A program made the position numbers and the translations under genes. Shown here one piece after another: positions 25,054 through 61,146 of a stretch of 64,000 bases of DNA. Position 1 is the first letter of the stretch. Every line of letters starts with the position of its first letter. Source of the stretch: Longimicrobiales bacterium (GTDB lineage: Bacteria > Gemmatimonadota > Gemmatimonadetes > Longimicrobiales > Gaopeijiaceae); NCBI GenBank assembly GCA_965206105.1, contig OZ242201.1, positions 588,852-652,851 on the forward strand, in the 5' to 3' direction. Under the pieces are notes generated by a model. It made no database searches. It was not told where the DNA came from and saw nothing but the letters and a program-made list of their open reading frames with translations.

Positions 25054-25315
25054 CGGCACCGGCGCCGACGATGTGCGGCGCAGACTCCTAGCGCCTCGGC
25101 ACTCTCGCCAGCACGCGAACTTCCGGTAGGGACCCTGGACTTGCGTTAGCGGAGGTAGAACATCTACATAGATTGGACATATACTGTTTCTTTATCTATG
25201 CTTCCGACGACCTGCTCATGTACGGTAATCGACAGCCTTCTGACGCAGGAAGGATACGATAAGGCGCTTAGGGGGTATCTGGCGTGGAACTCGGGCGATG
25301 GAGGTTTGGACCAAC

Positions 25316-28300
25316 ATGCGAACGCGATCCACGGCTGCCGGCTCGACCGCGGCCATGCTCCTCGCCGCGTTGGTTGCGCTTCTGCCGGGGGCGCCGGCCG
25401 GGGCACAGACCAGGGTTTCATCGGACTGGCCGCTCATCCCTCCCGAGGTAGGGGCCGGAGACACGTTCCGCCTGTTGTTCGTGACCTCCACCGAGGTTCA
25501 GCTCAACTCCGACAGCATCCACCACTACAACGCGTTCGTGCAGGCCCGTGCCGCCGCGGGCCATGCGGCCATTCAGTCGCACAGTTCGCTCTTCCGCGTC
25601 CTGGCCAGCACCGCCGCGGTCGCCGCGCGGGACAACACCGGCACGAACCCCGGCACCGATGGCCCCGGCGAGCCCATCTTCTGGCTTGGCAGCGGCGTCA
25701 GGGTCGCGGACGACTACGAGGACCTGTACGACGGGTACTGGGACAGCGAATCCTGGACCACCGAGGCGGGCGGATCGGGATCGGACCAGGCGCTTGGCAT
25801 ACTGAACGGCAGCACGGCGGACGGCCGCTCCAAGCCCAAGTGGCCGTTTCGGAACATTACGACCCAGGGCGAAAGGGTCGGCGGCGGAAAGCTGAACTCC
25901 GGCGGAATGCCCATGTACAGCGTGGACAGGGGCGCTGGTGCCGACGGTACGCTGTCCACCCGGGTCTACGCCCTCTCCTCCGTCTTCCAGGTAGCGCCCG
26001 ACACCCTGGGACCGGGCGGCATCTACGTGGCCGACGCGATGGCCGTCGAGGGCTACACCGCGGCCTTCGTCGTGACGATGGACGGGGCGCTGCCGGATGC
26101 GGCCACAGTGGACTACGAGACCTCGGACGGGACGGCCACCGCCGGATCCGACTACACGGCCGTTTCGGGGACGCTGACGTTCGCCGCGGGCGAGACCTCG
26201 AAAACCGTGACCGTAACGATCCCCGACGACGACGTCCACGAGGACTCCGAGGAATTCAGGCTGACGCTGAGCAACCCGAGCGCCAACGCGCGAGTCCTGG
26301 ACGCGATAGCGACGGGGCGGATCGACGGGGCCGAGCTTACGGCAGAGTTTGTCGGGGTGCCGACCAGTCACGACGGGGCGGCATTCGAATTCCTGCTCAG
26401 TTTCAGCGAAGAACCGGATTCGGCCTTCAGCTACCTGAACCTGAAGGGGGATGGAAGGCGGGCGGGCGCGCTTGCCGTGGCCAACGGACGGTTGGAGCGG
26501 ACGTACCGGTTCGGGTCGGACCACCGGAATCTTGTCTGGCGGATTCGCATCGCTCCGGACAGCGACGTCGCGGACGTTGCGATCACTTTGCTCGCGACGA
26601 CGGACTGCTCGGCGGCCAACGCGATCTGCACCGACAACGGGCGGCCGCTCTCGGTGCCGGTGACGGCGACGGTTCCGGGTCTGGCGCCCTGGCTTGCGGT
26701 GGTCGATGCGAGCGGGGTGGAGGGGGCGAACACGGCGGTGGACTTCACGGTGACGCTGAACCGCGCGGTGGCCGAAACCGTGACGGTGGACTACGCGACC
26801 TCCGACGGGACGGCGACCGCCGGAGCCGACTACACGGCCACGTCGGGAACGCTGACGTTCGCGCCGGGCGAGACCCGCAAGACGGTCTCCGTGCCATTGC
26901 TGGACGATGAAGTCGAGGAAAGCGCCGAGACGTTCACGCTGACGCTGAGCAATGCGTCGGGCGGCCGCGCGTATCTGTCGGACGCCACGGCAACGGGCAC
27001 CATCGCGGACGACGACTCGACGACACCGCCCGTGGGCGTCCCGCAGGGCGATGTATTGGTCAGCAACCTGGACCGACCGCTGGACTGGCGACCCAAGATC
27101 GGCATGGCAGACACTGTCGGCACCAGCCTCAATCAGCGGGGGGCACAGGTCTTTACCACCGGCGATTCAAGGGATGGCTACGAACTGACAGCGGTCGTGT
27201 TGAACTTTGCCTTCTACGAAGAGATCGACGGGGACAATCTGGAGGCATCGCTCCACTTGTTCGGGGTCGCAAGCGACCCGCTCGGGGAGAAGATCCTGGA
27301 CTTCGAGAATCCAACGACGTACGCCAGGTTCCGCGGTGACCGCGGCCCGGTGACGCTCGTACCTGCCGATGGCACGTCGGAGGAGAGCAGGATTCTTCGG
27401 CCCAATACCGACTATGTGATCCAGTTCGCTTTGCACACTTCAGGCATTGAGCGATGGTTCAAGATCGAGGCGACCAACAGTGGCGCTGAATCCGGAACGG
27501 ACGCCTGGCGGATTGCAGACGACAGTCATTGGAAGCAAACCGGCTGGATTGAATGGAGCACCAGAGACTATGTAATGAAGATGAAGGTCCTGGGCACACG
27601 CGTTGAACGTCCGCTTGTATTCGACGCAGGTCTGCCGGTGGCGCTGTCGGTAGCCGAGAACACGCCGGCGGGCACCAGGATCGGCCGACCCTTCACCGCC
27701 TCCCGCACGGATCCGAACGCTGCGTTGACCTATTCTCTGGACGGCCCCGGCAAGAACGATTTCGCGATTGATCCGGCGACTGCGCAGCTGAGGACGAAGG
27801 CGGTGCCGGACTTCGAGAACGCCAGCGAACACGCGCTTTCGATCATTGTGCGGGACGGACAGGATAGCGCCAGGCACGGACTGACGATCACGGTCTTGAA
27901 TCAGGACGAACCACCCGGCAGCCCGGCCGCGCCGACGCTGGAGTCGAGGGACGGCGAGAGTTTGACGGTGTCCTGGCTCGCCCCGGCCAACTCGGGCAAA
28001 CCGGACATTCTCCACTACGACCTGGGCTACCGCCTCGTGGGGTGGCCGGCCGGCGACCCGTTCAGAGACGGACCGCAGGATGTGGCGGACACCGTCGCGA
28101 GAATCCCGGCGCTGGTCGAGGGAGCTACGTACAAGGTGCGGGTGCGGGCGACCAACTCCGAAGGCGATGGGGAGTGGTCCGCGGCGCTCCTTGGTACGGT
28201 GCCGGGAACACCGCCGGTCGCGCCCTCCGTGACCGCCGTGGAACTGGCCGCGGACGAGTCGGGCGACCGGGCCTGGACATACGGAGAGAGCATCGAGGCG

Positions 28301-31042
28301 CGCGTCACATTCAACGAGCCGGTGTCGGTGAGGGGCAGCCCGACCCTTTGGATAACGATCGCGGGCGGGCCGGCGCCACTCGCCCTTGCGTCCGGTTCCG
28401 GGTCTGCAACGCTGGTGTTCGAACACGAGGTGACGGTTGACACGGCGAGCTACACCCGGATCGGGATCACGGAGAACAGCCTGGGATCGACCGGCGGGAC
28501 GATCGTGTCGCGAGCGACCGGAATGGTGGCGGATCTGTCCCACGAGGGCACGGAGCCTACGGCGGAACCGGACCCCGATGAGACGGTGCCCCTGACGGCG
28601 GAGTTCCAGGACATGCCGGAGTCGCACGACGGGAGCCGGATCCGGTTCGGGCTGACGTTCAGCGAGGAGTTGAGTCTCAGCCACCTGACACTGCGCGACG
28701 AGGCATTCGAGGTGACGGGCGGCACGGTGTTCGGCGCACAGCGCAAGGAGACGGGCAGCAACCGCCGCTGGACGATCTCGGTCGATCCGGCCCTGGCGAG
28801 CGAGACGGTGACGATCACGCTGCCGGAGACGACGGACTGCGGGGCGAGCGGCGCGATCTGCACGGGAGACAGCCGGCCGCTCTCGGCGACGGTCACGGCG
28901 ACGGTCGCGGGCGAGACGCACGTCCCGGCGCCCGAGCTGACGCTGGCCGGCGCGAGCGCGACCGAGGGCGGGAACGCGACGGTGGACTTTGCGGTGACAC
29001 TGAGCCGCGCTGCGACGGACACGGTGACGGTGCAGTATGCGACCTCGGACGGCACCGCGTCGGCCGGAACGGACTACACGGCCATGTCGGGCACGCTCAC
29101 GTTCGCTGCGGGCGACACGGCGAAGACGGTGTCGGTGCCTGTGCTTGACGATGCCGACGACGAGAACGACGAGACATTCACGCTGACCTTGAGCAACGCC
29201 TCCGGTGCGTCGCTCGGCAACACCACGGCCACCGGCACGATCGTCGACAACGACACCACCACCGCAACGCCGCTGACGGCGACCTTCGAGAACATGCCGG
29301 AGACGCACGACGGCAGCCGGATCCGGTTCGGTCTGACCTTCAGCGAGGATCTGAGCGTTAGCCACCTGACGCTGCGCGACGAGGCGTTCGAGGTGAACAG
29401 CGGCACCGTCTTCGGCGCGCAGCGCAAGCAGCCGGGCAGCAACCGCCGCTGGACGATCTCGGTCGATCCGGACTCGGCGGGCAGCGCCGTGACCATCATT
29501 CTGCCGGAGACGACGGACTGCGAGGCGAGCGGCGCGATCTGCACGAACGACAAACGGCCGCTGTCGCACTCGCTGACGGACACGGTGGCGGTGGAAGTGG
29601 AGGAGCCGACCGTCCCCTCGCTTGCCGTGGCCGGCGCCAGCGCCACCGAGGGCGACGCGGTCACCTTCACGGTGTCGCTGTCGGAGGCGAGCGGCCAGCG
29701 GGTGACGGTCGACTACGCGACCTCGGGCGGTACGGCGGCGAGCGGAACCGACTTCACGGCTGCATCGGGGACGCTGACCTTTGACGCGGGCGACAGATCG
29801 AAGACGGTGAACGTGACGACGACAGACGACTCGGATAACGAGGAGGACGAGACCTTGACACTGACTTTGAGCAACGCGTCCGGTGCAACGCTCGGCAACG
29901 CGACGGCGACCGGCACGATCGTCGACAATGACACCGCTGCAACGCCCCTGACGGCAACCTTCGAGGACATGCCGGAGACGCACGACGGGAGCCGGATCCG
30001 GTTCGGGCTGACCTTCAGCGAGGAGCTGGACGTCAGCTACCGGACGTTGCGCGACCACGCGTTCAGCGTCACGGGCGGCACGGTGTTCGGCGCGCAGCGC
30101 AAGCAGACGGGCAGCAACCGCCGCTGGACGATATCGGTCGACCCGACCTCGGCGAGCGACACGGTGACGATCACGCTGCCGGAAACGACGATCTGCGCTG
30201 CGACGGGCGCGATCTGCACGGCGGACAACCGGCCGCTGTCGCACTCGCTGACGGACACGGTCATCGACGCGGCCTCGTCGTCCTCGAGTGACATCGCCGG
30301 CGGAACCGAGCAGGGCGAAGTGGAGGCCGCGCTGGCCGCCGCGGGCGGCATCACCCCGGAGGAGGCCGCCGCCGCGCTGTTCGGCGAGGGGCGGCTGAGC
30401 GAGTCGCAGCTGGACGCCCTCGACCGCCTCGGCAACCGGAACGGCCGCTACGACATCGGCGATCTGGTCGCCTGGAGGGAGCGCTGCCGCCAGGGCACCG
30501 CGGACTGCGGGGGAAGCCCCGCGAGCCCGGGGCCGGCGGGTGCGGCGGCGCTGCTTGCGGTCGTGCCCGGCGGCCGCAGAGGGTCGCGGGGTGGTCCGGG
30601 AGGGCGGCGGGGTGCCGGGCGACGGCGGCGGACGGCCGCGCCCCGCCAGGCCCTGGCGATGCTCTTCGCCGTGGCCCTGGCCTGGTCCTGCACCGACGGC
30701 GGCCTGGTCGAACCGGCCGCCCCCGAACGGGCCCCGGACCCGGGCTACCTCACCGTGTCGCTGGTCACGCCGGCCGACAGCCGCGACAGCGGCGTACTGC
30801 TGGAACTCGAGGGCCCGGGCATCGCGGAGGTGCGGGCTCCCGGGTTCGAGCTGTTCGAATCCAGAGCCTCGGGGCGCCATCAGGTCATGGTAGCGGGCGC
30901 GCTGCGGGCGGGCCCCGTCCTTCAGATCCGCGTGCCGGACCGCAACCGGGTCTCGCTCTACCGGGTCCGCGTGATGCAGGTCGCGGGAGAGGACTACGCA
31001 CTCAGGGATGAAGCGGAGTACCGGACGGTGATCACGCGGTGA
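25316..31042 (+). CDS. giant modular surface protein 1 (Calx-beta x4, cadherin-like, FN3, two-Cys repeat x4, shared C-terminal cassette)
   Basis: Signal peptide MRTRSTAAGSTAAMLLAALVALLPGAPAGAQ. Calx-beta signature DY..(T/V)SGTLTF..GE..KTV.V...DD..E..E.F.L.L. Cadherin-like VAENTPAGT...NQDEPP. FN3 (LTVSWLAP...YKVRVRATN). Confidence 0.85.
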   Translation: MRTRSTAAGSTAAMLLAALVALLPGAPAGAQTRVSSDWPLIPPEVGAGDTFRLLFVTSTEVQLNSDSIHHYNAFVQARAAAGHAAIQSHSSLFRVLASTAAVAARDNTGTNPGTDGPGEPIFWLGSGVRVADDYEDLYDGYWDSESWTTEAGGSGSDQALGILNGSTADGRSKPKWPFRNITTQGERVGGGKLNSGGMPMYSVDRGAGADGTLSTRVYALSSVFQVAPDTLGPGGIYVADAMAVEGYTAAFVVTMDGALPDAATVDYETSDGTATAGSDYTAVSGTLTFAAGETSKTVTVTIPDDDVHEDSEEFRLTLSNPSANARVLDAIATGRIDGAELTAEFVGVPTSHDGAAFEFLLSFSEEPDSAFSYLNLKGDGRRAGALAVANGRLERTYRFGSDHRNLVWRIRIAPDSDVADVAITLLATTDCSAANAICTDNGRPLSVPVTATVPGLAPWLAVVDASGVEGANTAVDFTVTLNRAVAETVTVDYATSDGTATAGADYTATSGTLTFAPGETRKTVSVPLLDDEVEESAETFTLTLSNASGGRAYLSDATATGTIADDDSTTPPVGVPQGDVLVSNLDRPLDWRPKIGMADTVGTSLNQRGAQVFTTGDSRDGYELTAVVLNFAFYEEIDGDNLEASLHLFGVASDPLGEKILDFENPTTYARFRGDRGPVTLVPADGTSEESRILRPNTDYVIQFALHTSGIERWFKIEATNSGAESGTDAWRIADDSHWKQTGWIEWSTRDYVMKMKVLGTRVERPLVFDAGLPVALSVAENTPAGTRIGRPFTASRTDPNAALTYSLDGPGKNDFAIDPATAQLRTKAVPDFENASEHALSIIVRDGQDSARHGLTITVLNQDEPPGSPAAPTLESRDGESLTVSWLAPANSGKPDILHYDLGYRLVGWPAGDPFRDGPQDVADTVARIPALVEGATYKVRVRATNSEGDGEWSAALLGTVPGTPPVAPSVTAVELAADESGDRAWTYGESIEARVTFNEPVSVRGSPTLWITIAGGPAPLALASGSGSATLVFEHEVTVDTASYTRIGITENSLGSTGGTIVSRATGMVADLSHEGTEPTAEPDPDETVPLTAEFQDMPESHDGSRIRFGLTFSEELSLSHLTLRDEAFEVTGGTVFGAQRKETGSNRRWTISVDPALASETVTITLPETTDCGASGAICTGDSRPLSATVTATVAGETHVPAPELTLAGASATEGGNATVDFAVTLSRAATDTVTVQYATSDGTASAGTDYTAMSGTLTFAAGDTAKTVSVPVLDDADDENDETFTLTLSNASGASLGNTTATGTIVDNDTTTATPLTATFENMPETHDGSRIRFGLTFSEDLSVSHLTLRDEAFEVNSGTVFGAQRKQPGSNRRWTISVDPDSAGSAVTIILPETTDCEASGAICTNDKRPLSHSLTDTVAVEVEEPTVPSLAVAGASATEGDAVTFTVSLSEASGQRVTVDYATSGGTAASGTDFTAASGTLTFDAGDRSKTVNVTTTDDSDNEEDETLTLTLSNASGATLGNATATGTIVDNDTAATPLTATFEDMPETHDGSRIRFGLTFSEELDVSYRTLRDHAFSVTGGTVFGAQRKQTGSNRRWTISVDPTSASDTVTITLPETTICAATGAICTADNRPLSHSLTDTVIDAASSSSSDIAGGTEQGEVEAALAAAGGITPEEAAAALFGEGRLSESQLDALDRLGNRNGRYDIGDLVAWRERCRQGTADCGGSPASPGPAGAAALLAVVPGGRRGSRGGPGGRRGAGRRRRTAAPRQALAMLFAVALAWSCTDGGLVEPAAPERAPDPGYLTVSLVTPADSRDSGVLLELEGPGIAEVRAPGFELFESRASGRHQVMVAGALRAGPVLQIRVPDRNRVSLYRVRVMQVAGEDYALRDEAEYRTVITR
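30194..31042 (+). repeat. near-identical 849-bp 3' cassette (copy 1)
   Basis: Aligns to 37636..38484 at a constant offset of 7442. I count 10 mismatches and no indels by hand. Confidence 0.9.
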
Positions 31043-31059
31043 CACGGCTCGGCGCGATG

Positions 31060-31099
31060 CCCCCCGGCGTGCACGCTACGCCTCTTGTGCGCCGGGGGG
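31060..31099 (+). terminator. GC-rich hairpin after giant gene 1
   Basis: CCCCCCGGCG, a 20-nt loop, then CGCCGGGGGG. No clear U-tract follows. Confidence 0.35.
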
Positions 31100-31416
31100 G
31101 CGTCATTCCTGCCTTCCAGCCCGGCGCCTGACCGCACTCGGGCGTTCACTCGGACAATAACGTACACAATATTGTACAGTATTTCATGACAAGTTGACAA
31201 TACAATTCCCCACGGTGTTTGCCATATTCGTCGCACATGTTAGAATCTACGCCGTTTTCGTGCAGTTGTTGACGCCGAGTTCCACGTTGCGACCTCGGTT
31301 GGCAGGTTCAGTTCCTCGGTGGGGAAACTGAGCGGAAGTCTCGCTGCGTTCCTCCGACGTTTTGGGAAGCTGGCCGCCGCCAGGTCGCCAAACCCGAATC
31401 GGAGATCGCAAAGCGG

Positions 31417-34400
31417 ATGACACGGAGAGTTCGAGGGATCGAGCTGGTTGGGGATGAGCGAGCGGTTGGAGGTTCCCTCGCACGGCGGCACGGCAGGCGC
31501 CTTGCCGCCGCGTTTCTGTTCGCGTGCGCCTTCGGCGCCCTCGCCACCGGCGCTGCCGCGCAGAACGAGCCCGGTGCACCGAGGAACCTCACGAAGGAAC
31601 TGGCCGACACGAACGACGTGATCGTGAGGTGGGATCCGCCGGATCGCGGCGGTCCCGTCGAGTACTACCAGTACCTGATCGGGGATCCGGAGGGATTCGG
31701 TTCATTCTGGAGACGGATCGCCGGCAGTGATTCGACCACGACATCCTACACCTTCGAGGACGTCCCCGGCGGAGAGAGCCAGTTGAACATCCGGGCGCGG
31801 AACAGCGACGGAGCGGGGCAACGGGCAAGCGTGATCGTGAGAATCAATCGGCCGGCCACCGGGCAGCCGCGAATATCCGGCCGGCGCCATGTGCCCAACC
31901 GTCTGAGAGCCAATCTACACCTTGTCGAGGACGAAGACGGCCTGAGGAAGGAACTCCTGGATGGCTCCTCGCACAACCCGTACCGCTACCAGTGGCTGCG
32001 CGGAGACGCCGAACCGGAAGCGTGCGACTTCACCCGGTTCGGGCGGAAGGAATACGAGATGGGCCTGGCCAAGGAGTACAGGCTGAAGCCGGCGGACGCC
32101 GGCGATAGCCTCAGGGTCGCCGTCTGCTTCCGGGATCTCATGTCCGAGACCAACGTGGAGATGGTGATCAGCGACTATACCGAGGTCATCGAGGCCGATA
32201 CCCGGCCACCGGGGGTCAAGAGAGCGTTCACCAGCGAGGGAGGCGGCGGCGTCACGCTCTTCTTCGACGAGATCCTGAACCCCGGGGCCGACCCGCTGGA
32301 CGACATCGACGAGAACGATCCGCCCGCCGAGTGCGACAGTTCGTGGCTGCCGCCGCGGAGCGCGTTCCGGGTGAGCGTGGAAGGGGGAAAGCGCACCTAT
32401 CGTCCGCGCGAGGTCACCGTCCAGTATTGCAGCAAGAGTACGGGCAGGAGGGACAGAATCGGTCCCCTGGACGGCAGGGTCCACCTGGATCTGGGGACGA
32501 CCCAGCTGTTCAATCGGGGGATCAAGCAGGGACAGTCGGTCAGGGTCATCTACACCGATCCCACGTCGGACGACGACAAGGCCGCCCTGCAGGACCGGAC
32601 CGGCAACGATGTCGTAAGCTTCGACGTGGAGGTCGAGAACCGCTCCACGCAAGCCCCGAGCGACGAGGACGTTTCGGCGGAGCCCAAGCCCAAGTCGGTG
32701 TGGGTACCCCCCGACGGGCGCACCATCCGCATCACCTTCGACGAACCCCTCAACCCGGAGCGCGAATCGCCGGCGGACGCGTTCACCGTGACGCAGGGGA
32801 ACGCTTCCCTGTCCGTCAACAATGCCTTGCTGGATGGTCCGCGCGCGCGGGTCACCCTCCAGGTGTATCCGCGCGTCCGGCAGGGCGGGAGCGTCACCGT
32901 GGGCTACCGGAACCCCGGGGGGAACGACGCCCTGCAGGACGTGGACGGCTTGCTCGCGAAGACCTTCAGCCGCCGGGCGGCGAACAGCTCGGCCCTGAAG
33001 CCCGGGCTGCGGCCCGTATCCGCCGAGGTCCAGGCCGATGGCCTGGAGGTGGAAATGCGTTTCAACACCAGGCTGCTTGAGAACGACGTGTCGCCCGGCG
33101 CCTTCACGATGCAGGTCGGTGGCACGGCGTACACGTTTGGAGACATAGAATTCTTCGACAACGGCAACTACATGCTCCTCTCGCAGTTTGGGGGGGTTGT
33201 CCCGGCGGACGAGACGGTCACGGTGGGCTATACCGAGCCGGCGCACGGCGCTCTGCTCCTGGCCCAGGACTCGAGGACGGCCGGTTCGTTTTCCCGCTTC
33301 GGGGCTACGAACTCATCGGAGTGGCGTGACGTGCCGGTCGCCGTCGACGCGGTCGCGGAGGAGCTGGACGCGTTCGACATTCTGTTCGTGGGGGAACTGG
33401 ATACCACAGTGGGATCTCCGCCGAACAGCGCCTTCAACGTGACGATCGACGGCACGGCGACCACCTTCGATTCGGTTCGAGTGGTCGCATCGGACAGGGT
33501 CCGGATTTCGGGTCTTGCGAGGCAGATGAAAACGGGCCAGCGCGTTGTGGTCTCATACACCCAACCGGCCACCGGGATCGTATTGCAGAGCGCGACAACA
33601 GGAAACGCGCTCGCCGGCTTCGAGCTGAGAGTGACGCTGGTCTTCCCGCCGAAGCCGGTGGGTGCGCAGGTGTCGGAGTCAGTCCGCCACAGGCTCTGGA
33701 TAGAGTTCGACCGCCCGATCTCACCGGACAACTTTCCGCCGACGTCGGCGTTCACAGTGAAGGTCAACGGCGTGGCGCGCACGGTGCACTCGGTCTCCCG
33801 CGGCTCGGCATCCGAACCGGAGTTGGTGTACCTGACATTCCCCACACTCGTGCGCGGCGACCCGGTCACCGTGAGTTACGAAAAGCCCGCGGGCTCCAGG
33901 CGGCTCCGGGGAACCAACTCCAGGGAAGTCGGCAGCTTCAGCGACTACCGGGTGGACAACCCAAATCCAGGCGTGCCGCGGTTGCTGAGACTGACCTGGT
34001 CGCTTGAAGACGACGAGGATAGGTTCAGCAAGGTCTTGGTCAACCTCACTTTCGACGCCGATCTGTCGTCGTCGTTGCCGTCAGAGTCGGCGTTTACGGG
34101 ATCGACGTTCACTGTAGCTCAAGGTGGGGGCGTGAATCGAGTGCGCTTTGACGTAGACGAAGTGTGGCTTGATTCCAACAATCCCAGAAGGCTCCGGCTG
34201 AAGACCTCCATTTTCGAAGCCTCCATAAGAGAAGAAATCGTCATTGGATACACCAAACCCACGTCGGGGAACACGCTCCAGGGCGCACGCGGCCACGAAG
34301 TGCCCAGCTTTTCCTTTACCGGAGATGCCGTCCGGGCAAATGGGCAAAACGCCCCCCCCTCCCCGGTCACGGCGGAGTTCACCCAACTGCCGCTACTTCA

Positions 34401-41400: not shown

Positions 41401-43450
41401 GCGAGGCGCTCGACGAGTCCTCGACGCCCGCGGCGGCGGCGTTCGCGGTGACGGTGGCGGGCGAGGTGTGGAGCCTTGCGGCGACAGGCCCCGTGGCGGT
41501 GAGCGGATCGACCGTGACGCTGGCGCTCGACTCGGCGGCGGCGCCCGGCGACACGGTTGAGGTGAGCTACACCCCGCCGCTCGCCGACGCCCTGCAGGAC
41601 ACCGCGGGCAACCGCGCGGCTTCGGCGACGATCGCGGCCAGCGTCCCCGCGGACACGGTGGTGACGCCCGTGGTGACGGTGCCGCTGACGGCGGAGTTCC
41701 AGGGGCTTCCGGAGCGTCACGACGGCGGGCCGTTCACCTTCCAGCTGGTGTTCAGCGAGGAGTTCAGCGTCAGCTACCAGACGCTGCGCGACGAGGCGTT
41801 CGAGGTGACGGGCGGCACGGTCTTCGGCGCCCAGCGCAAGGAGACGGGCAGCAACCGCCGCTGGACGATCTCGGTCGATCCGGACTCGGCGGACATAGCG
41901 GTGACGATCACGCTCCCCGAAACGGCGGACTGCAATGCGGCCGGCGCGATCTGCGCGGAGGAGAACCGGCGGCTGTCGCACTCGCTGACGGCGACGGTCG
42001 AGGGCGAGGCGGCGGCCGTCCCGTCGCTTGCCGTGGCCGACGCCAGCGCCACGGAGGGCGCCGCGGTCGCATTCACGGTGTCGTTGTCGGAGGCGAGCAG
42101 CGGACAGGTGACGGTCGACTACGCGACCTCGGGTGGGACCGCCGTGAGCGGAACCGACTTCACGGCGGCGTCGGGGACGCTGACCTTCGCCGCGGGTGAC
42201 AGCTCAAGACGGTGAGCGTCGCAACGGCCGACGACACGGTGGACGAGAACGACGAGACATTCACGCTGACCTTGAGCAACGCCTCCGGTGCGAGCCTCGG
42301 CGACAACGCCACGGCGACCGGCACGATCGTCGACAACGACACCACCGCAACGCCGCTGACGGCGACCTTCGAGAACATGCCGGAGACGCACCACGACATT
42401 GCGTTCGAATTCGCGCTGAAGTTCAGCGAGGAATTCCCGATCAGCTACAAGACGTTGCGCGACGGTGCGTTCAACGTCACGGGCGGCGAGGTGACAGGTG
42501 CGCGGCGCCGGCTGAAGAGCAGCAACCTCATCTGGTTCATCCAAGTCGATCCGGCCTCGGCGAACGACACGGTGACGATCACGCTGCGGGAGACGACGGA
42601 CTGCGATGCGGCCGGCGCGATCTGCACGGCGGACAACCGGCCGCTGTCGCACTCGCTGACGGACACGGTCATCGACGCGGCCTCGTCGGCCTCGAGTGAC
42701 ATCGCCGGCGGCACCGCACGGGACGAAGTGGAGGCCGCGCTGGCCCTAGCGGGCGGCATCACCCCGGAGGAGGCCGCCGCCGCGCTGTTCGGCGAGGGGC
42801 GGCTGAGCGAGTCGCAGCTGGACGCCCTCGACCGTCTCGGCAACCGGAACGGCCGCTACGACCTCGGCGACATGCTGGCCTGGATCGAACGCTGCAGGCA
42901 GGGCAACGCGGACTGCGGGGGAAGCCCCGCGAGCCCGGGCCCGGCGGCTGCGGCCGCGCTGCTCGCGTTCGTGCCCGGCGGCCGCAGAGGGTCGCGGGGT
43001 GGTCCGGGAGGGCGGCGCGGGGCCGGGCGTGGGCGCCGGGCCGCCGCGCCCCGCCACGCTCTGGCTATCCTCTTCGCCGCGGCCCTGGCGCTGTCCTGCA
43101 CCGACGGCGGCCTGGTCGAACCGGCCGCCCCTGAACAGGCCCCGGACCCGGGCCTCCTCAATGTGTCACTGGTCACGCCGGCCGCCAGTCGCGACAGCGG
43201 CGTGCTGCTGGAACTCGAGGGCCCGGGCATCGCGGAAGTGCGGGCTCCCGGGTTCGAGCTCTTCGAATCCCGAGCCTCGGGGCGGCATCAGGTCATGGTA
43301 GCGGGCTCGCTGCGGGAGGGCCGCGTCCTCCGGATCCGCGTGCCGGACCGCAACCGGCTCTCGCTCTACAGGGTCCGCGTGATCCAGGTCGCCGCCGAGG
43401 ACTACCAACTCAGGGACGAAGCGGAGTACCGGGCGGTGATCACGCGGTGA
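38484..43450 (+). pseudogene. giant modular surface protein 3 (two GH16-like + Ig-like + cadherin-like blocks, two-Cys repeat x2, Calx-beta, C-terminal cassette), broken by a 1-nt frameshift near 42208
   Basis: ORFs 38481..42215 and 42212..43450 join into one protein when compared with gene 4 (48417..48427 CTCAAGGACGG versus 42203..42212 CTCAAGACGG). GH16-type catalytic motifs EIDILE and EIDIFE. Signal peptide AWVAAAWLVLSFACLVPQAAAAQ. Confidence 0.7.
38643..41351 (+). repeat. internal tandem duplication of a ~1.35-kb GH16-like/Ig-like/cadherin-like block
   Basis: TGGGTCCTGGCGTGG at 38670 and TGGGTACTGGCGTGG at 40020, an offset of 1350. The unit ends are offset by 1359 (a 9-nt indel). Confidence 0.85.
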
Positions 43451-43551
43451 CGACCCGGGGCGCGCCCGTGGTGCGGGCGATTCGCGCGAATGCCGCATTG
43501 GGCACAACGGCTCATTCCTGCGGTGCGGATTGGGAAGGCGCACCAAAAAGC

Positions 43552-43588
43552 GTAAAGCAAACATTACCATATGTCGTGTTTACTTTAC
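43552..43588. repeat. 37-bp AT-rich bipartite element, copy D (units inverted)
   Basis: GTAAAGCAAACATTAC-CATAT-GTCGTGTTTACTTTAC, upstream of giant gene 4. Confidence 0.8.
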
Positions 43589-43724
43589 AAACCAGTCCAG
43601 CCCTTGACATCGGCAAACGCTGTTAGCTCGTCGTCTTGTGTCGTAGTATCTTGATTGGTCGAGAATGTATAGAAATGTATCGACCCGAAAACTGAGGCCA
43701 GCCTACCGCCAGCAGGCAGGACCC

Positions 43725-46700
43725 ATGACGAACACCCGGACGGTTGCATCCCAACGCAGGTCGATCGACACGGTCGCTGCAACAGGTACCTCGAGCCACG
43801 AGCCGCCGACAGGCATCCCGCCGGGCGCATGGGTAAGGGCGGCGTTGGTGATCCTGTCACTCGCGTGCGTTGGGCCCCAGGTTGCCGATGCGCAACCTCC
43901 TCCTCCAACCGGCAAGCGCTGGGTCCTGGCATGGAGCGAGGACTTCAACGGCTCGTCGCTCGATTGGTCGAAATGGAATCACAGGAGCGAGGCGTCTCGA
44001 GGGGAGCGCGGCCACGGCGGACACCGGATCAAGTGGCGGTACGAGCACGACAACGTCGGTCTCGCGAACGGTCATCTGGTGCTGCGCAATACCCGGCAGT
44101 CGGGTGATGAATACGACCTGGTCAAGGCCGCCGCGATCGACACCAAGGGCAAGTTCGAGCAGACCTACGGGTACTTCGAGGCCAGCATCAGGATCGCCCC
44201 TACCGGAGACGGGATCCACACGGCCTTCTGGCTCCAGAACGACAACCGGCACAGGAAGGCCGGCAACGGCGGTGTCGACGGGCCCTCCGACGGAGCCGAA
44301 ATCGACATCCTCGAGTCGGTGTACACCACCGATCGCTATGCCATGGCCGTTCATTGGGACGGCGGCCGCAGTCAGGTCGAGGAAACCGACTTCCCTCCTT
44401 TGCACGGCGGACAGTTCCATGTCTACGGGCTCGCCTGGACACCGGACAGCTACACCTTCTACGCAGACGGACAACGGAAGGAGCAGATGTTCGATGTCGT
44501 GTCTCATAGTGACGGATACGTCATTCTGTCCACCGGCTTAAGTTGGTTCGCGGGCAATGCGCACACCGGCACGTTCCCCAACGAGGCCCTGGTGGACTGG
44601 GTCCGGGTATACGAGTTGGTGGATGCCCCCGCGATCACCGTGACGGGCAGCGCGAACGTGGGCCGCACGCTGACCGCATCCGCCACCGGCATCCAGGGCG
44701 AGGCCGGATCGGGCACTCCGACGTTCGGGTGGCAATGGCTCGTCAGTGATGGCGACGGCGATTCCTACGCGGAGATTGCCGGAGCCACCGCGACGGAGTA
44801 CACCGTCAGGCCATCCGACCAGGGCAAATCGCTCAAGGTACGCGCCACCTACACCGACGCCGACGATACCCGGCAGACCGTGTACAGCGAGCCACTTCTC
44901 GTGACTCAGCCACCGACAATCACCAGCACCGGCCCATTCACGGTGAACGAGGGCGAGACGGCGGTGGCCACTTTGACGGCGACAGACGGAGATACGAAGG
45001 CCGGGGAACTGGTCTGGTCCGTGCGGGGCGGTGTCGACGGAGACCACTTCACCTTCACCGGAGGCAGCTCGCTCGCCTTCAGGGCCGCCAAGGACTTCGA
45101 GGCGCCCGACGACGGGGATCGCGACGGAAGCTACGAGGTGGTGGTGCGGGTGGGCGACGGCGCGAATACGGCGACCGATACCCTGTCCATCACGCTCGCG
45201 GATGTCGACGACGAGGGTGGTCCCGAGCTCCAATCGGCGAGGGGTGACGGAAGCGCCCTGCTGCTGGTGTTCGACGAGGTACTGGACGCGTCGTCCACGC
45301 CGGCAACGGCGGCCTTCGCGGTAGCTGTGAATCGTGTATCGAAGGCCATTTCGCACGTCCAGCTGGAGAACAACCTGGTCAGGCTGACGCTGACTGGCCC
45401 GCCGCCGGCTTTGGGCGATTCCGTCACCGCAAGCTATACCGTACCGTCATCGAATCCGCTGCGGGACGTCTCGGGTACCCCGGCCGCCTCGGCGACGATC
45501 GAGACCCTCCTGAAGCCGCGGCTGACCGCGCGTTTCGACGCTATTCCAAATGCGCATGGTGGCGCACCCTTTTTGCTCTCGGTGATCTTCAGCGAGGCGA
45601 CCACCGTGGCCTGGAAGGCGATGCGCGACCGCGTCCTGACCGTGAAGAATGGGCGGGTGACCCGTGCGGTACGGCTCAACCACGGTGGTCCCGAGAACGC
45701 GGCCTGGCAGGTCACGATCGAGCCGGCTGGCGGCGACGTGACCGTCGAGCTGCCGACGACGACGGATTGCGGGGCTGGCGACGCGGTGTGCACGGAAGAT
45801 GAACGCCCCCTGATCGAGGCCGTGACGGCGACGATAGCCCAGGGGACCGTCCCTCCGCTGACGGCGGAGTTCTCGGAGGCACCTGGTGAGCATGACGGAT
45901 CGGAGGGCTTTACGGTCAGGCTCAACTTCACCGCGGCGGTCAACGTGACCGAGACGGCACTGCGCACCAGGACGCTGAGCGTGAGCGGCGGTCGGGTAGA
46001 GTCGGCGGAGCATGAAATCGGACGCCGCGACCGGTGGTTGCTGACAATCGCGCCGACATCGCTCGAGGACGTGACTGTGGCACTCTCATCACCGGCTTCC
46101 TGCGGCGAAGCGGACGCGGTGTGCGCGCCGGACGGGCGCAAGCTGTCTGCCGGCGCGGATGTCCGCGTCAAGGGACCGGCGAGCATTCCGCTTACGGCGT
46201 GGTGGCGGCCGTACTACCGGAAGCACGACGGCTCGAAGGTGTTCACGCTCAACGCCGAGTTCAGCTGGCCGGTGGCGACCTCGCGCGAGGCCGTGCGGGA
46301 TGCCGTCCAGGTTACCAACGGCGAGGCCACCGATGCGTTTCCCAGAGAGAATCAGCCAAAGGTCTGGGTGTTCCGGATCAAGCCGCTGTACAACGAGACG
46401 GTGCGCGTCACGTTGCTGCCGGCCAGCGACTGCGCCGCCGAGGGGGCGATCTGCACCGACGACGGGCGTCCGCTGTCGAGCACGGCGCTTTGGGATGTCC
46501 TGCCCAGGAACCCGAACGCGGTGGACGAGACCGCGCCGGAAGTGCAGGGTGCGGAGGTGGACGGCGCGCACCTCGTATTGCTGTACAACGAGGGGCTCGA
46601 CGAGGCCTCCACGCCCGAGGCGGGCGCCTTTGCCGTGACGGTGGAAGGCCAGGCGCGTGACCTGGCGGCGAACGATCCGGTTGCAGTGGACGGGCGGCGG

Positions 46701-49688
46701 GTGCGGTTGACGCTCGCATCGGCGGTCGGGCACGGCGACACGGTGACGGTGAGCTACACGGTGCCGAGTTCGAACCCGGTGCAGGACAGGGCCGGGAATA
46801 CGGCGGCCGCGTTGAGTGATGAGGCGGCGACCAACCATACGCCCCAGGACACACCGGCAGGCGACACCACCGCGCCGGAGCTTCAGGGCGCCGAGGCGAG
46901 CACGGACTCGGTGGTGCTGACCTACAGCGAGGCGCTCGACGAGTCCTCGACGCCCGCGGCGGCGGCGTTCGCGGTGACGGTGGCGGGCGAAGCGCGGAGC
47001 CTTGCGGCGACAGGCCCCGTGGCGGTGAGCGGATCGACCGTGACGCTGGCGCTCGACTCGGCGGCGGCGCCCGGCGACACGGTTGAAGTGAGCTACACCC
47101 CGCCGTCCGCCGACGCCCTGCAGGACACCGCAGGCAACCGCGCGGCTTCGGCGACGATCGCGGCCGGCGTCCCCGCGGACACGGTGGTGACGCCCGTGGT
47201 GACGGTGCCGCTGACGGCGGAGTTCCAGGGGCTTCCGGAGCGTCACGACGGCGGGCCGTTCACCTTCCAGCTGGTGTTCAGCGAGGAGTTCTCGATCAGC
47301 TACGCGCTGCTGCGGGGTACCGACTCGGAGCCCGGCGCGATCTCGGTGACGGGCGGCGGCGTGACGGGGGCGGGTCGCGTGGTGGCGGGCGAGAACCGGC
47401 AATGGAACATCACCGTCGAGCCGGGCGGCACGGGGGATGTGACGATCACGCTGCCGGAGACGACGGACTGCGGGGCGAGCGGCGCGATCTGCACGGGGGA
47501 CAGCCGGCCGCTCTCGGCGACGGTCACGGCGACGGTCGCGGGCGAGACGCACGTCCCGGCGCCCGAACTGACGCTGGCCGGCGCGAGCGCGACGGAGGGG
47601 AACGCGACGGCGGACTTCGCGGTGACACTGAGCCGCGCTGCGACGGACACGGTGACGGTCGACTACGCGACCTCGGACGGCACCGCGGCGGCCGGGACGG
47701 ACTACACGGCCACGTCGGGCACGCTCACCTTCGCAGCGGGCGACACGGCGAAGACGGTGTCGGTGCCGGTGCTTGACGATGCCGTCGACGAGGAGGACGA
47801 GACGTTCACGCTCACCCTGAGCAACGCCTCCGGTGCGAGCCTCGCCGACACTGCGGCGACCGGGACGATCGCTGACAACGACACCACCGCAACGCCGCTG
47901 ACGGCGACCTTCGAGGACATGCCGGCGTCGCACGACGGCAGCCGAATCAGCTTCGGGCTGACCTTCAGCGAGGAGTTCAGCGTCAGCTACCAGAAGCTGC
48001 GCGACGAGGCCTTCGAGGTGACGGGCGGCACGGTCTTCGGCGCCCAGCGCAAGGAGACGGGCAGCAACCGCCGCTGGACGATCTCGGTCGATCCGGACTC
48101 GGCGGACATAGCGGTGACGATCACGCTCCCCGAAACGGCGGACTGCAATGCGGCCGGCGCGATCTGCGCGGAGGAGAACCGGCGGCTGTCGCAATCGCTG
48201 ACGGCGACGGTCGAGGGCGAGGCGGCGGCCGTCCCGTCGCTTGCCGTGGGCGAGGCGAGCGCCACGGAGGGCGACGAGGTCACGTTCACGGTGTCGCTGT
48301 CAGCCGCGAGCAGCCGGCAGGTGACGGTCGACTACGCGACCTCGGGTGGGACGGCCGTGAGCGGAACCGACTTCACGGCGGCGTCGGGGACGCTGACCTT
48401 CGCCGCGGGTGACAGCTCAAGGACGGTGAGCGTCGCAACGGCCGACGACACGGTGGACGAGAACGACGAGTCATTCACGCTGACCTTGAGCAACGCCTCC
48501 GGTGCGACGCTCGGCAACACCACGGCCACCGGCACGATCGTCGACAACGACACCACCACCGCAACGCCGCTGACGGCGACCTTCGAGAACATGCCGGAGA
48601 CGCACCACGACATTGCGTTCGAATTCGCGCTGAAGTTCAGCGAGGAATTCCCGATCAGCTACAAGACGTTGCGCGACGGTGCGTTCAACGTCACGGGCGG
48701 CGAGGTGACAGGTGCGCGGCGCCGGCTGAGGAGCAGCAACCTCATCTGGTTCATCCAAGTCGATCCGGCCTCGGCGAACGACACGGTGACGATCACGCTG
48801 CGGGAGACGACGGACTGCGATGCGGCCCGCGCGATCTGCACGGCGGACAACCGGCCGCTGTCGCACTCGCTGACGGACACGGTCATCGACGCGGCCTCGT
48901 CGGCCTCGAGTGACATGACAAGCGGGGATGTCGCGGACGACGCGGCCGAGGCGCTGATCGTCGCCGGCGGGATCAGTCCCGACGAGGCCGCCGCGGCATT
49001 GTTCGGGGAGGCGGTGCCGGGCGGACAGCGGCTGGAGGCGCTGGACCGGCTCGGCAACCGGAACGGGCGATACGACCTCGGCGACCTGCTCTCCTGGATC
49101 GATCGCTGCCGGCGGGGCGAGGTGCGCTGCGGCGGCACGCCCGCCGGCTCCGAGGGGTCGGCGGCATCCGCCGCCCTGCTGGCAGCTACGGGCCCGGGCT
49201 GGAGGAAGTTCGGGCAACCGCGCAGGCGGAGGCGCGATTCCGGCCCCGGAGGCCGAGCGCCGGCTCACCGGGCGGGCCGAAGAAAGGACCCGGTGCGATG
49301 GGCACTCGCCGCGCTGTTGGTCGCCGCCGTCGCCTGGTCATGCACCGGCGACCTGACCGGACCGGGCGCACCGGAGCAGGATCCCGGTTTCGTGACGGTG
49401 CAACTCGGCGTCCCGGCCGCCCATCGCGCCACAGGTGTCCTGCTGGAGCTGGAGGGCCCCGGCATCGAAGCGGTGCGGGCTCCGGACCGAGAGCTGTATC
49501 AGTCCGAATCACCGGGCCGGCATCAGGTCATCGTGGCGGGCTCCGTGACCACGGGTCCCCTGATGCGGTTCCGCGTTCCGGACCGCAACCGGCTCCCCCT
49601 GTACCGGGTCCGCGTCGTGCAGGTTGCGGGGGAGGACTACGGGCTCAGGGACCCCGGCGACTACAGGGCCGTGATCACGTCGAACTGA
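43725..49688 (+). CDS. giant modular surface protein 4 (GH16-like, Ig-like, cadherin-like, Big_5-like, two-Cys repeat x6, Calx-beta x2, diverged C-terminal cassette)
   Basis: ORF 43665..49688; the start is ATG 43725 or 43665. Signal AWVRAALVILSLACVGPQVADAQ. GH16 motif EIDILE. Calx-beta signatures. Confidence 0.85.
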   Translation: MTNTRTVASQRRSIDTVAATGTSSHEPPTGIPPGAWVRAALVILSLACVGPQVADAQPPPPTGKRWVLAWSEDFNGSSLDWSKWNHRSEASRGERGHGGHRIKWRYEHDNVGLANGHLVLRNTRQSGDEYDLVKAAAIDTKGKFEQTYGYFEASIRIAPTGDGIHTAFWLQNDNRHRKAGNGGVDGPSDGAEIDILESVYTTDRYAMAVHWDGGRSQVEETDFPPLHGGQFHVYGLAWTPDSYTFYADGQRKEQMFDVVSHSDGYVILSTGLSWFAGNAHTGTFPNEALVDWVRVYELVDAPAITVTGSANVGRTLTASATGIQGEAGSGTPTFGWQWLVSDGDGDSYAEIAGATATEYTVRPSDQGKSLKVRATYTDADDTRQTVYSEPLLVTQPPTITSTGPFTVNEGETAVATLTATDGDTKAGELVWSVRGGVDGDHFTFTGGSSLAFRAAKDFEAPDDGDRDGSYEVVVRVGDGANTATDTLSITLADVDDEGGPELQSARGDGSALLLVFDEVLDASSTPATAAFAVAVNRVSKAISHVQLENNLVRLTLTGPPPALGDSVTASYTVPSSNPLRDVSGTPAASATIETLLKPRLTARFDAIPNAHGGAPFLLSVIFSEATTVAWKAMRDRVLTVKNGRVTRAVRLNHGGPENAAWQVTIEPAGGDVTVELPTTTDCGAGDAVCTEDERPLIEAVTATIAQGTVPPLTAEFSEAPGEHDGSEGFTVRLNFTAAVNVTETALRTRTLSVSGGRVESAEHEIGRRDRWLLTIAPTSLEDVTVALSSPASCGEADAVCAPDGRKLSAGADVRVKGPASIPLTAWWRPYYRKHDGSKVFTLNAEFSWPVATSREAVRDAVQVTNGEATDAFPRENQPKVWVFRIKPLYNETVRVTLLPASDCAAEGAICTDDGRPLSSTALWDVLPRNPNAVDETAPEVQGAEVDGAHLVLLYNEGLDEASTPEAGAFAVTVEGQARDLAANDPVAVDGRRVRLTLASAVGHGDTVTVSYTVPSSNPVQDRAGNTAAALSDEAATNHTPQDTPAGDTTAPELQGAEASTDSVVLTYSEALDESSTPAAAAFAVTVAGEARSLAATGPVAVSGSTVTLALDSAAAPGDTVEVSYTPPSADALQDTAGNRAASATIAAGVPADTVVTPVVTVPLTAEFQGLPERHDGGPFTFQLVFSEEFSISYALLRGTDSEPGAISVTGGGVTGAGRVVAGENRQWNITVEPGGTGDVTITLPETTDCGASGAICTGDSRPLSATVTATVAGETHVPAPELTLAGASATEGNATADFAVTLSRAATDTVTVDYATSDGTAAAGTDYTATSGTLTFAAGDTAKTVSVPVLDDAVDEEDETFTLTLSNASGASLADTAATGTIADNDTTATPLTATFEDMPASHDGSRISFGLTFSEEFSVSYQKLRDEAFEVTGGTVFGAQRKETGSNRRWTISVDPDSADIAVTITLPETADCNAAGAICAEENRRLSQSLTATVEGEAAAVPSLAVGEASATEGDEVTFTVSLSAASSRQVTVDYATSGGTAVSGTDFTAASGTLTFAAGDSSRTVSVATADDTVDENDESFTLTLSNASGATLGNTTATGTIVDNDTTTATPLTATFENMPETHHDIAFEFALKFSEEFPISYKTLRDGAFNVTGGEVTGARRRLRSSNLIWFIQVDPASANDTVTITLRETTDCDAARAICTADNRPLSHSLTDTVIDAASSASSDMTSGDVADDAAEALIVAGGISPDEAAAALFGEAVPGGQRLEALDRLGNRNGRYDLGDLLSWIDRCRRGEVRCGGTPAGSEGSAASAALLAATGPGWRKFGQPRRRRRDSGPGGRAPAHRAGRRKDPVRWALAALLVAAVAWSCTGDLTGPGAPEQDPGFVTVQLGVPAAHRATGVLLELEGPGIEAVRAPDRELYQSESPGRHQVIVAGSVTTGPLMRFRVPDRNRLPLYRVRVVQVAGEDYGLRDPGDYRAVITSN

Positions 49689-54575: not shown

Positions 54576-54640
54576 TTCCACCCCACGCGGCACCCCCTCA
54601 CCCCCCCGCCGCACCCCACCCTGCGACCAAGGCCGCGCGC

Positions 54641-59461: not shown

Positions 59462-59498
59462 ATGGATTACCATATGCTTGATATGGGAATATGGCAAG
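59459..59498. promoter_or_regulatory. ATATGG repeat cluster at the vapB start (candidate autoregulatory operator)
   Basis: CATATGGattaCCATATG palindrome plus two further ATATGG words (59481, 59489). Confidence 0.4.
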
Positions 59499-61132: not shown

Positions 61133-61146
61133 CAGGTGTCCGTATT

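Follow-up and report, generated by a model that had tools for sequence, protein, structure and literature searches.

What might hold four giant proteins with unlike N-terminal heads to the envelope of one bacterium, and how might such heads be exchanged? The question is raised by a stretch of 64 kb (~68% G+C; hereafter the window, whose full-length numbering is used for all coordinates) on contig OZ242201.1 of a Longimicrobiales bacterium, where open reading frame (ORF) calling places four co-oriented coding regions on the + strand between 25.3 and 49.7 kb. We call these array genes g1 to g4; related loci bear handles such as L001, L004 and L006, and protein cluster representatives from the searches bear handles such as P0039. 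An earlier reading, made from the sequence alone, had taken the array as a candidate for an undescribed system. The part of this that stands is the C-terminal cassette, which is undescribed in Pfam and NCBIfam; the heads are familiar, and the genes make up a modular protein family with a novel putative anchor rather than a multi-gene system. We propose that the family consists of surface proteins defined by this shared C-terminal anchor, in which the new element would be a cassette carrying an internal lipobox-like site and a terminal folded domain.

A common cassette at the C-terminus of the array genes

The same cassette of ~270 amino acids (aa) ends all four genes, and these four copies are the only ones in the window. 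The genes and their cassettes lie as follows.

25298..31042, + strand: g1, 1914 aa counted from the first ATG (the second is at 25316)
31417..38484, + strand: g2, 2355 aa
38481..42215, + strand: 5' ORF of g3 (g3a), 1244 aa from a GTG start, with a frameshift at its end
42212..43450, + strand: 3' ORF of g3, 412 aa, in another frame than the 5' ORF
43665..49688, + strand: g4, 2007 aa (start previously placed at 43725)
30266..31042, + strand: g1 cassette, with the GNRNG loop motif at 30431, the Cys codon of W-S-C at 30689-30691 and the beta-sandwich at 30692-31039
37708..38484, + strand: g2 cassette, loop motif at 37873, Cys codon at 38131-38133
42674..43450, + strand: g3 cassette, loop motif at 42839, Cys codon at 43097-43099 in an L-S-C context
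48888..49688, + strand: g4 cassette, loop motif at 49053, Cys codon at 49341-49343

Delimited from alignments together with AlphaFold2 (AF2) models, the cassette opens with a low-complexity Ser/Ala linker and continues with a four-helix domain (predicted local distance difference test, pLDDT, above 90), which holds a C-x6-C pair and a D-x-L-G-N-x-N-G-x-Y-D-x-G-D loop. The loop lies between two helices and is invariant or nearly invariant. It is followed by a short Ala-rich hydrophobic segment (GP.SAA.LLAAAAAG), a polybasic linker that is disordered in the AF2 model, a hydrophobic stretch of 12-15 residues with W-[S/G/A]-C at its end, and an eight-stranded beta-sandwich of ~116 aa (modelled alone, pLDDT 86.5 and predicted template modelling score 0.75; a pLDDT above 90 is also reported). 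None of these parts matches a Pfam or NCBIfam family at E<=10, and a PDB sequence-profile search gave chance-level matches only. Among structures, Foldseek pairs the beta-sandwich best with the non-cellulosomal cohesin 2xdh (probability 1.00, E 1.3e-2, template modelling (TM) score 0.51/0.44), a weak match that generic immunoglobulin-like (Ig-like) folds nearly equal in score, and a model of the three-domain tail returns generic Ig-like matches only (LdtMt2, nanobodies). The predicted beta-sandwich is thus weakly cohesin-like, which serves as a lead only.

Conservation and range of the cassette

A degenerate-pattern scan of one genome per species yielded 120 confirmed places, from which 74 loci were kept. 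All but one of these 74 belong to Longimicrobiales, Palauibacter or Gemmatimonadota metagenome-assembled genomes (MAGs), many of them from sponges and with several copies per genome; the nearest relatives of the array proteins are likewise from Palauibacter and Longimicrobiales MAGs. The sole locus outside Gemmatimonadota bins, L071 (JAPPHB010000060.1, a MAG from the sponge Rhopaloeides binned as Gammaproteobacteria), has an AlpA-type neighbour and reflects either mis-binning or horizontal transfer on an integrative conjugative element (ICE). The loop motif occurs in 82 ORFs of the 74 loci, ranging from ~330 to more than 3800 aa in length, and it mostly lies 200-230 aa before the stop codon, with a few truncated variants in which it is closer.

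A profile search over 1.84 billion representative proteins, clustered at 50% identity, matched the cassette in 167 clusters when E<=1e-30 was required and in 424 at E<=1e-10; with few exceptions, it closes the C-terminus of the matched proteins, which are 233-7341 aa long. We analysed 121 representatives. The hydrophobic stretch and the Cys are present in 119, and every one of the 119 with the stretch has the Cys. The residue before the Cys (-1) is always small, as it is where lipoproteins are cleaved: S in 79 cases, G in 26 and A in 14, with nothing else. W occupies position -2 in 104 of 119 (87%), and -3 is mostly A or T. The hydrophobic region (h-region) before the Cys resembles that of a signal peptide (Kyte-Doolittle 1.92 over 13 aa and 1.06 over 19 aa), and the polybasic linker ahead of it (median 51 aa) has 13 R/K residues against 1 D/E, arranged in two clusters with the peak immediately before the h-region. 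After the Cys, ~116-118 conserved aa follow in 119 of the 121 clusters.

A hidden, in-frame small lipoprotein gene with an internal start was considered as the source of the second half and rejected, since a suitably placed Met is found in just 11 of 119 clusters. The in-frame continuity of passenger, linker, h-region, Cys and sandwich across clusters points to a conserved design rather than an accident of annotation or assembly. Natural variants depart from it: P0039, P0164 and P0176 lack the polybasic linker and hydrophobic stretch and have the helical domain fused straight to the sandwich, and P0184 stops right after the Ala-rich segment. Such variants may have arisen by genuine deletion in the linker DNA, which is CGG-rich, or by faulty assembly.

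A putative membrane hairpin with a lipobox-like site

Our preferred reading, to which we give a probability of about 0.55, is that g1-g4 are paralogous, Sec-exported, envelope-attached modular proteins, each composed of a variable head, a rigid stalk and a cassette acting as a retention or sorting hairpin, with tracts that recombine among them. Their bearer would be a host-associated, presumably sponge-associated, Palauibacter-like Gemmatimonadota bacterium in which one of the four proteins is broken by a frameshift. At the N-terminus, a hydrophobic h-region (Kyte-Doolittle 2.2-2.6) follows a basic stretch in g1, g2, g3a and g4, consistent with the signal peptide that had been proposed for each gene. 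At the other end, the lineage-specific cassette of ~270 aa would serve for retention or sorting, probably as a membrane hairpin with a lipobox-like site: the weak Ala-rich segment would stop transfer, the polybasic linker would remain in the cytoplasm, and the signal-peptide-like h-region would re-initiate export of the terminal beta-sandwich, so that stalk, helical loop domain and beta-sandwich would all lie outside the cytoplasmic membrane. The hairpin topology is suggested by the positive-inside rule and by ~13 net positive charges, which we expect not to be exportable. The conserved Cys of W-[S/G/A]-C would then be a candidate site of lipidation or cleavage. Leaving aside the N-terminal signal-peptide regions, all Cys of g1, g3 and g4 except the single unpaired one of the cassette form C-x6-C pairs (the g2 head has four further Cys, at 203, 237, 306 and 338, outside such pairs), a pattern that an oxidising compartment outside the cytoplasm, with a single reactive Cys, would be expected to give. 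The representatives P0039 and P0164, in which the helical domain is joined to the sandwich, suggest that these two domains are normally in the same compartment.

Several observations weigh against this reading. The same loci supply 50 N-terminal lipobox candidates, which carry L at -3, A, S or T at -2 and A or G at -1, with W at -2 in none of the 50; W-[SGA]-C is therefore unlike an ordinary lipobox, which makes classical processing by Lgt and LspA uncertain. The site may be read by a specialised enzyme, or its Cys and Trp may have another role at the membrane interface. The Ala-rich segment (Kyte-Doolittle 0.56 over 19 aa) is weaker than the h-region and too weakly hydrophobic for a confident transmembrane helix. 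In a diderm cell, moreover, a 2000-aa adhesin attached by a hairpin in the inner membrane would stay in the periplasm unless a further step took it outward, and no sorting enzyme is linked to the cassette genes in any of the 74 loci (21 kb each).

Known routes of anchoring and secretion were compared with the cassette in turn. With lipoprotein signals of the Lgt/LspA type it has in common a basic n-region, an h-region of 12-15 aa, a small residue at -1 ahead of an invariant Cys, and a folded domain beyond it. Against the pattern [LVI][ASTVI][GAS]C, the n-region, h-region, S/G/A at -1 and Cys fit, and W at -2 and A/T at -3 (in place of L) do not; the motif is also internal, 600-7000 aa into the protein and ~116 aa from the C-terminus rather than N-terminal. 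A canonical lipoprotein signal was rejected as the simple reading on the difference from the 50 ordinary candidates. No NCBIfam/TIGRFAM model for PEP-CTERM, GlyGly-CTERM or MYXO-CTERM matches the whole proteins at E<=0.01 or the cassette pieces at E<=10, and the PEP motif is absent from the tails. All five ORFs lack LPx[TSA]G in a regular-expression search. For the type IX secretion system (T9SS), there is no match to Por_Secre_tail in NCBIfam or Pfam and no Foldseek match to its C-terminal domain (CTD); unlike that domain, the sandwich is not contiguous with the passenger, from which it is separated by the polybasic linker and hydrophobic stretch. HemolysinCabind, the family of RTX repeats, has no match, and GGxGxD occurs once, presumably by chance, at aa 158 of g1 and nowhere at the C-termini. 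The T9SS CTD, PEP/GlyGly/MYXO-CTERM, LPXTG, RTX and autotransporter routes were all set aside for want of a model or motif match.

Alternative readings of the cassette

The tail resembles C-terminal sorting signals in its general plan, and the first half of the cassette could instead be a cleavable signal of the exosortase, rhombosortase or myxosortase type, with an unlinked enzyme, transfer to the surface by, for example, type II secretion, and the lipoprotein-like unit as a partner fused in a 1:1 ratio; we think this unlikely, yet it deserves consideration. As in the PEP-CTERM/exosortase, GlyGly-CTERM/rhombosortase, MYXO-CTERM/myxosortase and LPXTG/sortase systems, one tail is common to many unrelated exported proteins of a lineage, with many substrates per genome, and motif, hydrophobic stretch and basic cluster come in the same order: the layout is tripartite, with C-G(G)-x8, GPxSAAxLLAAAAAG and RRR, and the two basic clusters of the linker peak just before the h-region. 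The choice-of-anchor R domain in g1 fits as well, and in the PEP-CTERM and GlyGly-CTERM systems the enzymes are often unlinked to their many substrates. However, at a cut-off as lax as E<=10 the cassette still matches no NCBIfam CTERM model, the Ala-rich segment is only weakly hydrophobic, and the signal would not be C-terminal, for the second h-region, the Cys and a folded domain of 116 conserved residues come after it in nearly all clusters. A Met that could mark the start of a formerly separate gene is as rare as noted above (11 of 119), and the recurrent neighbours at the 74 loci include no candidate enzyme. A self-docking pair seems to us distinctly improbable. Here the dockerin-like, Ca-loop domain would bind the cohesin-like sandwich of the same or a neighbouring molecule and, after cleavage at W-S|C, the sandwich would form a lipidated receptor or a surface lattice. 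The cohesin-dockerin systems, including the Archaeoglobus fulgidus protein 2xdh, offer a fold that the sandwich matches (probability 1.00, TM 0.51) and a helix-loop-helix with an Asp/Asn/Gly-rich loop like the nearly invariant one found here between two helices, and the two domains always co-occur and remain fused even when the hairpin is deleted. The match is nevertheless weak, at an E value of only 1.3e-2 with generic Ig-like folds nearly equal. Neither the helical part nor the sandwich matches the dockerin or cohesin sequence families of Pfam at E<=10, and a single conserved loop stands where dockerins have a duplicated F-hand; a dockerin identified by sequence was rejected for lack of a Pfam match. 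Combining elements of these ideas, the cassette could supply both cargo and receptor from one polypeptide, through a stop-transfer segment followed by the internal W-[S/G/A]-C signal, with the released, lipidated cohesin-like domain capturing the dockerin-like loop of the passenger. We hold this to be a long shot, although, if it were true, any head recombined onto a cassette, including one borne on an ICE, would be displayed at once.

The genomic context of some relatives could point to a different function altogether, in which cassette proteins would be related to conjugation, as mating-pair adhesins or surface-exclusion proteins of ICEs, and the array in the window would be ICE-derived cargo. 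In 22 of the 74 loci, AlpA and VirB2/4/8/9/10/6-like genes follow directly downstream of a cassette gene, and in 21 the cassette gene has a tyrosine recombinase upstream of it. But the window has no integrase, type IV secretion system (T4SS) gene or tRNA, 52 of the 74 loci are without ICE genes, and heads of glycoside hydrolase family 16 (GH16) do not suggest mating functions, so that this explanation appears very improbable. The reading of the cassette as an envelope-anchoring or sorting hairpin is the one that we carry forward.

Familiar heads on a two-Cys stalk

The genes are arranged, from N- to C-terminus, as follows.

g1: signal peptide, unassigned N-terminal domain, Calx-beta, two-Cys repeat, Calx-beta, choice-of-anchor R, cadherin, fn3, two-Cys/Calx-beta stalk, cassette
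g2: signal peptide, fn3, run of SWM/Ig-like domains, six C-x6-C pairs alternating with three Calx-beta, cassette
g3, 5' ORF: signal peptide, duplicated GH16 + Ig-like + cadherin-like unit, SWM, two-Cys repeat, start of a Calx-beta
g3, 3' ORF: remainder of the Calx-beta, last two-Cys repeat, cassette
g4: signal peptide, one GH16 (its EIDILE at aa 212), Ig-like, cadherin-like, two-Cys repeat (three copies), SWM repeat (three copies), two-Cys/Calx-beta stalk, divergent cassette
28574..30268, + strand: stalk of g1, in which three two-Cys Ig-like repeats (~113 aa each) alternate with Calx-beta

Calx-beta, cadherin, fn3 and SWM_repeat all match above the Pfam gathering scores (whole-protein scores of 274, 174 and 132 bits for Calx-beta, 39.7 for Cadherin, 38.9 for fn3, and 105 and 144 for SWM_repeat), and by Pfam and NCBIfam Calx-beta occurs four times in g1, three times in g2, twice in g4 and once, cut by the frameshift, in g3. 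The Calx-beta, cadherin-like and FN3 domains read earlier in gene 1 are thus borne out, as is the description of gene 2 as FN3 with an Ig-like run, for which fn3 and SWM/Ig-like repeats were matched. To the former our search adds a choice-of-anchor R domain (NF041539) at aa 565-781 of g1 (47.6 bits against an NCBIfam cut-off of 30), a family named for proteins with alternative C-terminal anchors. The N-terminal domain of g1 (25415-26050, aa ~40-250) has no Pfam or NCBIfam match even at E<=10; to judge by eye, its FRLLFVTS...YNAFVQ..A pattern may bear a likeness to endostatin or C-type-lectin-like domains. The GH16-like domains previously seen in genes 3 and 4 match PF00722 at 97.1 bits in g3 (two copies) and 52.9 bits in g4, against a cut-off of 22, and their catalytic motif is intact (EIDILE and EIDIFE in g3, EIDILE in g4, with E-[ILV]-D-[IVAF]-[VILMF]-E as the pattern). 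By sequence, these heads qualify as GH16 family members; kappa-carrageenase and ExoK models score far under their cut-offs on them. The heads of g1 and g2 would act as binding modules and those of g3 and g4 as a GH16 glycanase, and all appear to be ordinary extracellular modules, typical of the eukaryotic-like proteins of sponge symbionts.

Beyond the window, a census of 40 representatives found Calx-beta in 28, fn3 in 21, leucine-rich repeats in 9, two cadherin-type families in 7 and 5, SWM in 6 and discoidin in 5, along with PKD, SusE-like and LapA-like heads, every one of them a binding module of extracellular type. Variable heads on a common C-terminal module, as first described for the array, are therefore a feature of the wider family.

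Between head and cassette, every array gene has the common architecture of two-Cys units interleaved with Calx-beta that had been noticed from the sequence. Outside the cassette there are 18 C-x6-C pairs (4 in g1, 6 in g2, 2 in g3 and 6 in g4), of which 17 could be extracted as full two-Cys repeats of ~113 aa; the remaining pair is in g2 (Cys 1065/1072), where five of six were extracted. The repeats alternate with Calx-beta domains and have the consensus PLTA.F...P..HDG..F.F.L.FSE... R.W.I.V.P....VTITLPETTDC...GAICT.D.RPLS. This repeat has no sequence match in Pfam, NCBIfam or PDB (a PDB profile search gave chance-level results only), and its AF2 model is a beta-sandwich with pLDDT above 90. 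Calx-beta alternating with such Ig-like repeats, each stapled by a disulfide, would make a rigid stalk. A protein search with a single repeat gave 2 matches, and a repeat profile gave 73 that are short and mostly unnamed. Among these matches, which include P0230, one named protein comes from beyond Gemmatimonadota, from a sponge Acidimicrobiia MAG, and the repeat may be shared among phyla of sponge symbionts.

Recombination through shared tails

Recombination in this family is well supported by comparison of its sequences. Within the array, the last ~800 bp of g1 and g2 are 98-100% identical, with exact runs of up to 207 bp, and the last repeat of g3 and g4 is 99-100% identical, after which identity falls to 43-77% in the cassette. 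At the amino acid level the g1 and g2 cassettes are 97% identical, both are 88% identical to that of g3, and the g4 cassette is about 60% identical to that of g1. The histories of heads and tails disagree. A gene of OZ242947.1 (L006) is 95% identical in amino acids to the g1 head but 60% identical in the cassette, and the g2 head is 99% identical to that of L004, with 62% between their cassettes. OZ242947.1 has its orthologs of g1, g2 and g3/g4 spread over three different places on the chromosome, which suggests that the four-gene array is specific to the present lineage. DNA homology with these orthologs ends at the ends of two-Cys repeats (29586 in g1 and 37704 in g2), where we place the breakpoints of recombination between heads and tails.

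A strain represented by L001, whose flanks are 99% identical to the window, lacks g2. Upstream of the cassette, its sequence is 100% identical to g1 and 78% to g2; within the cassette it matches both; and directly after the stop codon it is 100% identical to the DNA downstream of g2, which is the start of g3, as opposed to 16-31% for the DNA downstream of g1. Loss or gain of g2 by homologous recombination inside the shared cassette would be expected to give exactly this product. Mosaic tails, head/tail discordance and this gain or loss within the cassette between near-identical strains uphold the suggestion that the family diversifies by recombination. The cassette and the repeated stalk units would serve as homology tracts through which heads are moved between tails and tandem arrays gain or lose genes; such tandem arrays of cassette genes occur in 10 of the 74 loci.

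Integrity of the array and of its gene calls

Four co-oriented genes had been read in the array, of which g1, g2 and g4 are intact. The third, given as a single gene at 38484..43450, is not one gene, for that length is not a multiple of 3 and it comprises two ORFs in different frames, split by a single missing base.

42205..42215, + strand: frameshift site in g3, where one G is missing after 42208, giving TGA at 42213-42215

In the alignment of g3 with g4, AAGGAC of g4 corresponds to AAGAC of g3 inside a Calx-beta domain, in a 100-bp context that is otherwise identical, and an intact g3 ortholog of 1202 aa is present in L001. The g3 head also contains an internal tandem duplication of GH16 + Ig-like + cadherin-like (38646-39992 and 39996-41352, 89% identical), which the L001 strain lacks. 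The array ORFs have a G+C content at third codon positions (GC3) of 0.86-0.89 and the codon-position G+C pattern of real genes. Long antisense ORFs in the array lack this pattern, and we regard them as by-products of high G+C. A sigma70-like promoter match lies upstream of g2 at 31219-31246. The GTG start of g3 overlaps the stop codon of g2 (38481-38484), an arrangement suggestive of co-transcription or translational coupling, and in L001 g1 and g3 are linked by the same overlap.

That chimeras or wrongly joined repeats produced the array during assembly, or that its genes are pseudogenes in decay, seems to us hardly credible. Such an origin could account for the 1-bp frameshift and internal duplication in g3, the ~800-bp near-identical tail of g1 and g2 could mislead an assembler, and a close strain is without g2. 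Yet paralogous blocks across the array are mostly 75-90% identical in DNA, that is, they differ by 10-25% over most of their length, which argues against a collapsed repeat; an independent assembly has g1, g3 and g4 in the same order at 97-99% identity, and on these two grounds a collapsed repeat was ruled out. A simple mis-join across the cassette would not produce the tandem order g1-spacer-g2-g3. As for decay, g1, g2 and g4 remain open over 1914-2355 aa, with GC3 of 0.86-0.87, and other genomes hold full-length orthologs.

Neighbouring genes and integrative conjugative elements

Upstream of the array, the window encodes an AAA/DUF4143 protein, a TPR protein, an epimerase, an amidohydrolase and RidA; downstream are an amidase, two DUF3667 genes, a sortilin/BNR protein, and ParE and PIN toxins. 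The flanks contain no tRNA, integrase, secretion system, sortase-like gene or regulator. The earlier observation that no secretion system, sortase or regulator adjoins the array thus holds for this window, but elsewhere ~30% of cassette genes adjoin a type IV secretion/ICE module. In a survey of the 21-kb loci around the 74 cassette places, the tyrosine recombinase upstream (21 loci) and, directly downstream (22 loci), homologs of AlpA, TrbC/VirB2, VirB4, VirB8, CagX/VirB9, TrbI/VirB10 and TrbL/VirB6 are the sole neighbours that recur strongly, and they indicate that part of the cassette family is carried on ICEs; flanking integrase and T4SS genes are lacking in the window and present in 22 of the 74 related loci. 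No linked sorting enzyme was seen among the recurrent neighbours, which are integrase, AlpA, T4SS, a hybrid histidine kinase, peptidases and a Y-family polymerase. ICE-borne cassette loci, in which the giant gene stands between a tyrosine recombinase and the AlpA and VirB-like set, include L005 (3619-19279), L011, L013, L015, L017, L028-L035 and others, and the element recurs within and between Palauibacter genomes. Carriage on ICEs may be a route by which heads and cassettes spread, and may explain the locus binned as Gammaproteobacteria.

Other features of the window are of separate interest:

52290-53318 and 53322-54374, both - strand: two adjacent paralogous DUF3667 genes
54506-58048, + strand: sortilin/Vps10-BNR repeat protein, 1180 aa
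58073-58342, 58781-59221 and 59222-59515, all - strand: toxin-antitoxin-type genes, comprising ParE, PIN and a small upstream ORF
18861-21298 (+ strand), 60350-62277 (- strand) and 30-3327: ORFs of 194-549 aa with GC3 of 0.80-0.93 and no Pfam match

A sortilin-like protein also lies near cassette genes in five other loci, for example at 5638-7671 of L039, and the region at 60.3-63.6 kb is syntenic with DNA ~1 kb downstream of the L024 cassette gene.

Comparison with known systems and implications

In their head and stalk domains, and in their ecology, the array proteins resemble the eukaryotic-like proteins of sponge symbionts, and their relatives here come from Palauibacter sponge MAGs. The same eukaryotic-like domain classes are reported to be enriched in sponge-symbiotic Actinobacteriota (PMC11706023). 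That literature counts Pfam domains, and the cassette, the two-Cys repeat and the recombination of heads and tails are not described there (PMC11706023); the genome paper that defined Palauibacterales makes no mention of these proteins. RTX adhesins of the LapA and MpIBP type and SwmB of Synechococcus are likewise very long, with Ca-binding Ig-like extenders (Calx-beta, cadherin-like, SWM) and a ligand-binding or enzymatic region far from the anchor. However, these adhesins are exported by type I secretion, guided by an RTX signal at the C-terminus, and lack an N-terminal signal peptide, whereas the array proteins have a predicted signal peptide and no RTX repeats. Mosaic identity among paralogs, discordant histories of head and tail, and arrays resized through shared tracts recall gene-conversion surface families as a general class. 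The array differs from these in that no silent-cassette donor locus or dedicated recombinase is seen here, and in that the anchor end is conserved while whole multi-domain heads vary.

Symbionts of sponges and corals are rich in eukaryotic-like adhesion domains, and how proteins with such domains are fixed to the cell and how their repertoires shift is little understood, especially in uncultured Gemmatimonadota. The cassette provides a concrete, searchable C-terminal module, common to hundreds of such proteins, that no described sorting signal matches, and that would act as their anchor. There is direct comparative evidence that this module and the stalk repeats are recombination joints, swapping heads and resizing arrays between near-identical strains. 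The module also gives an annotation handle for a family whose members are now labelled "hypothetical".

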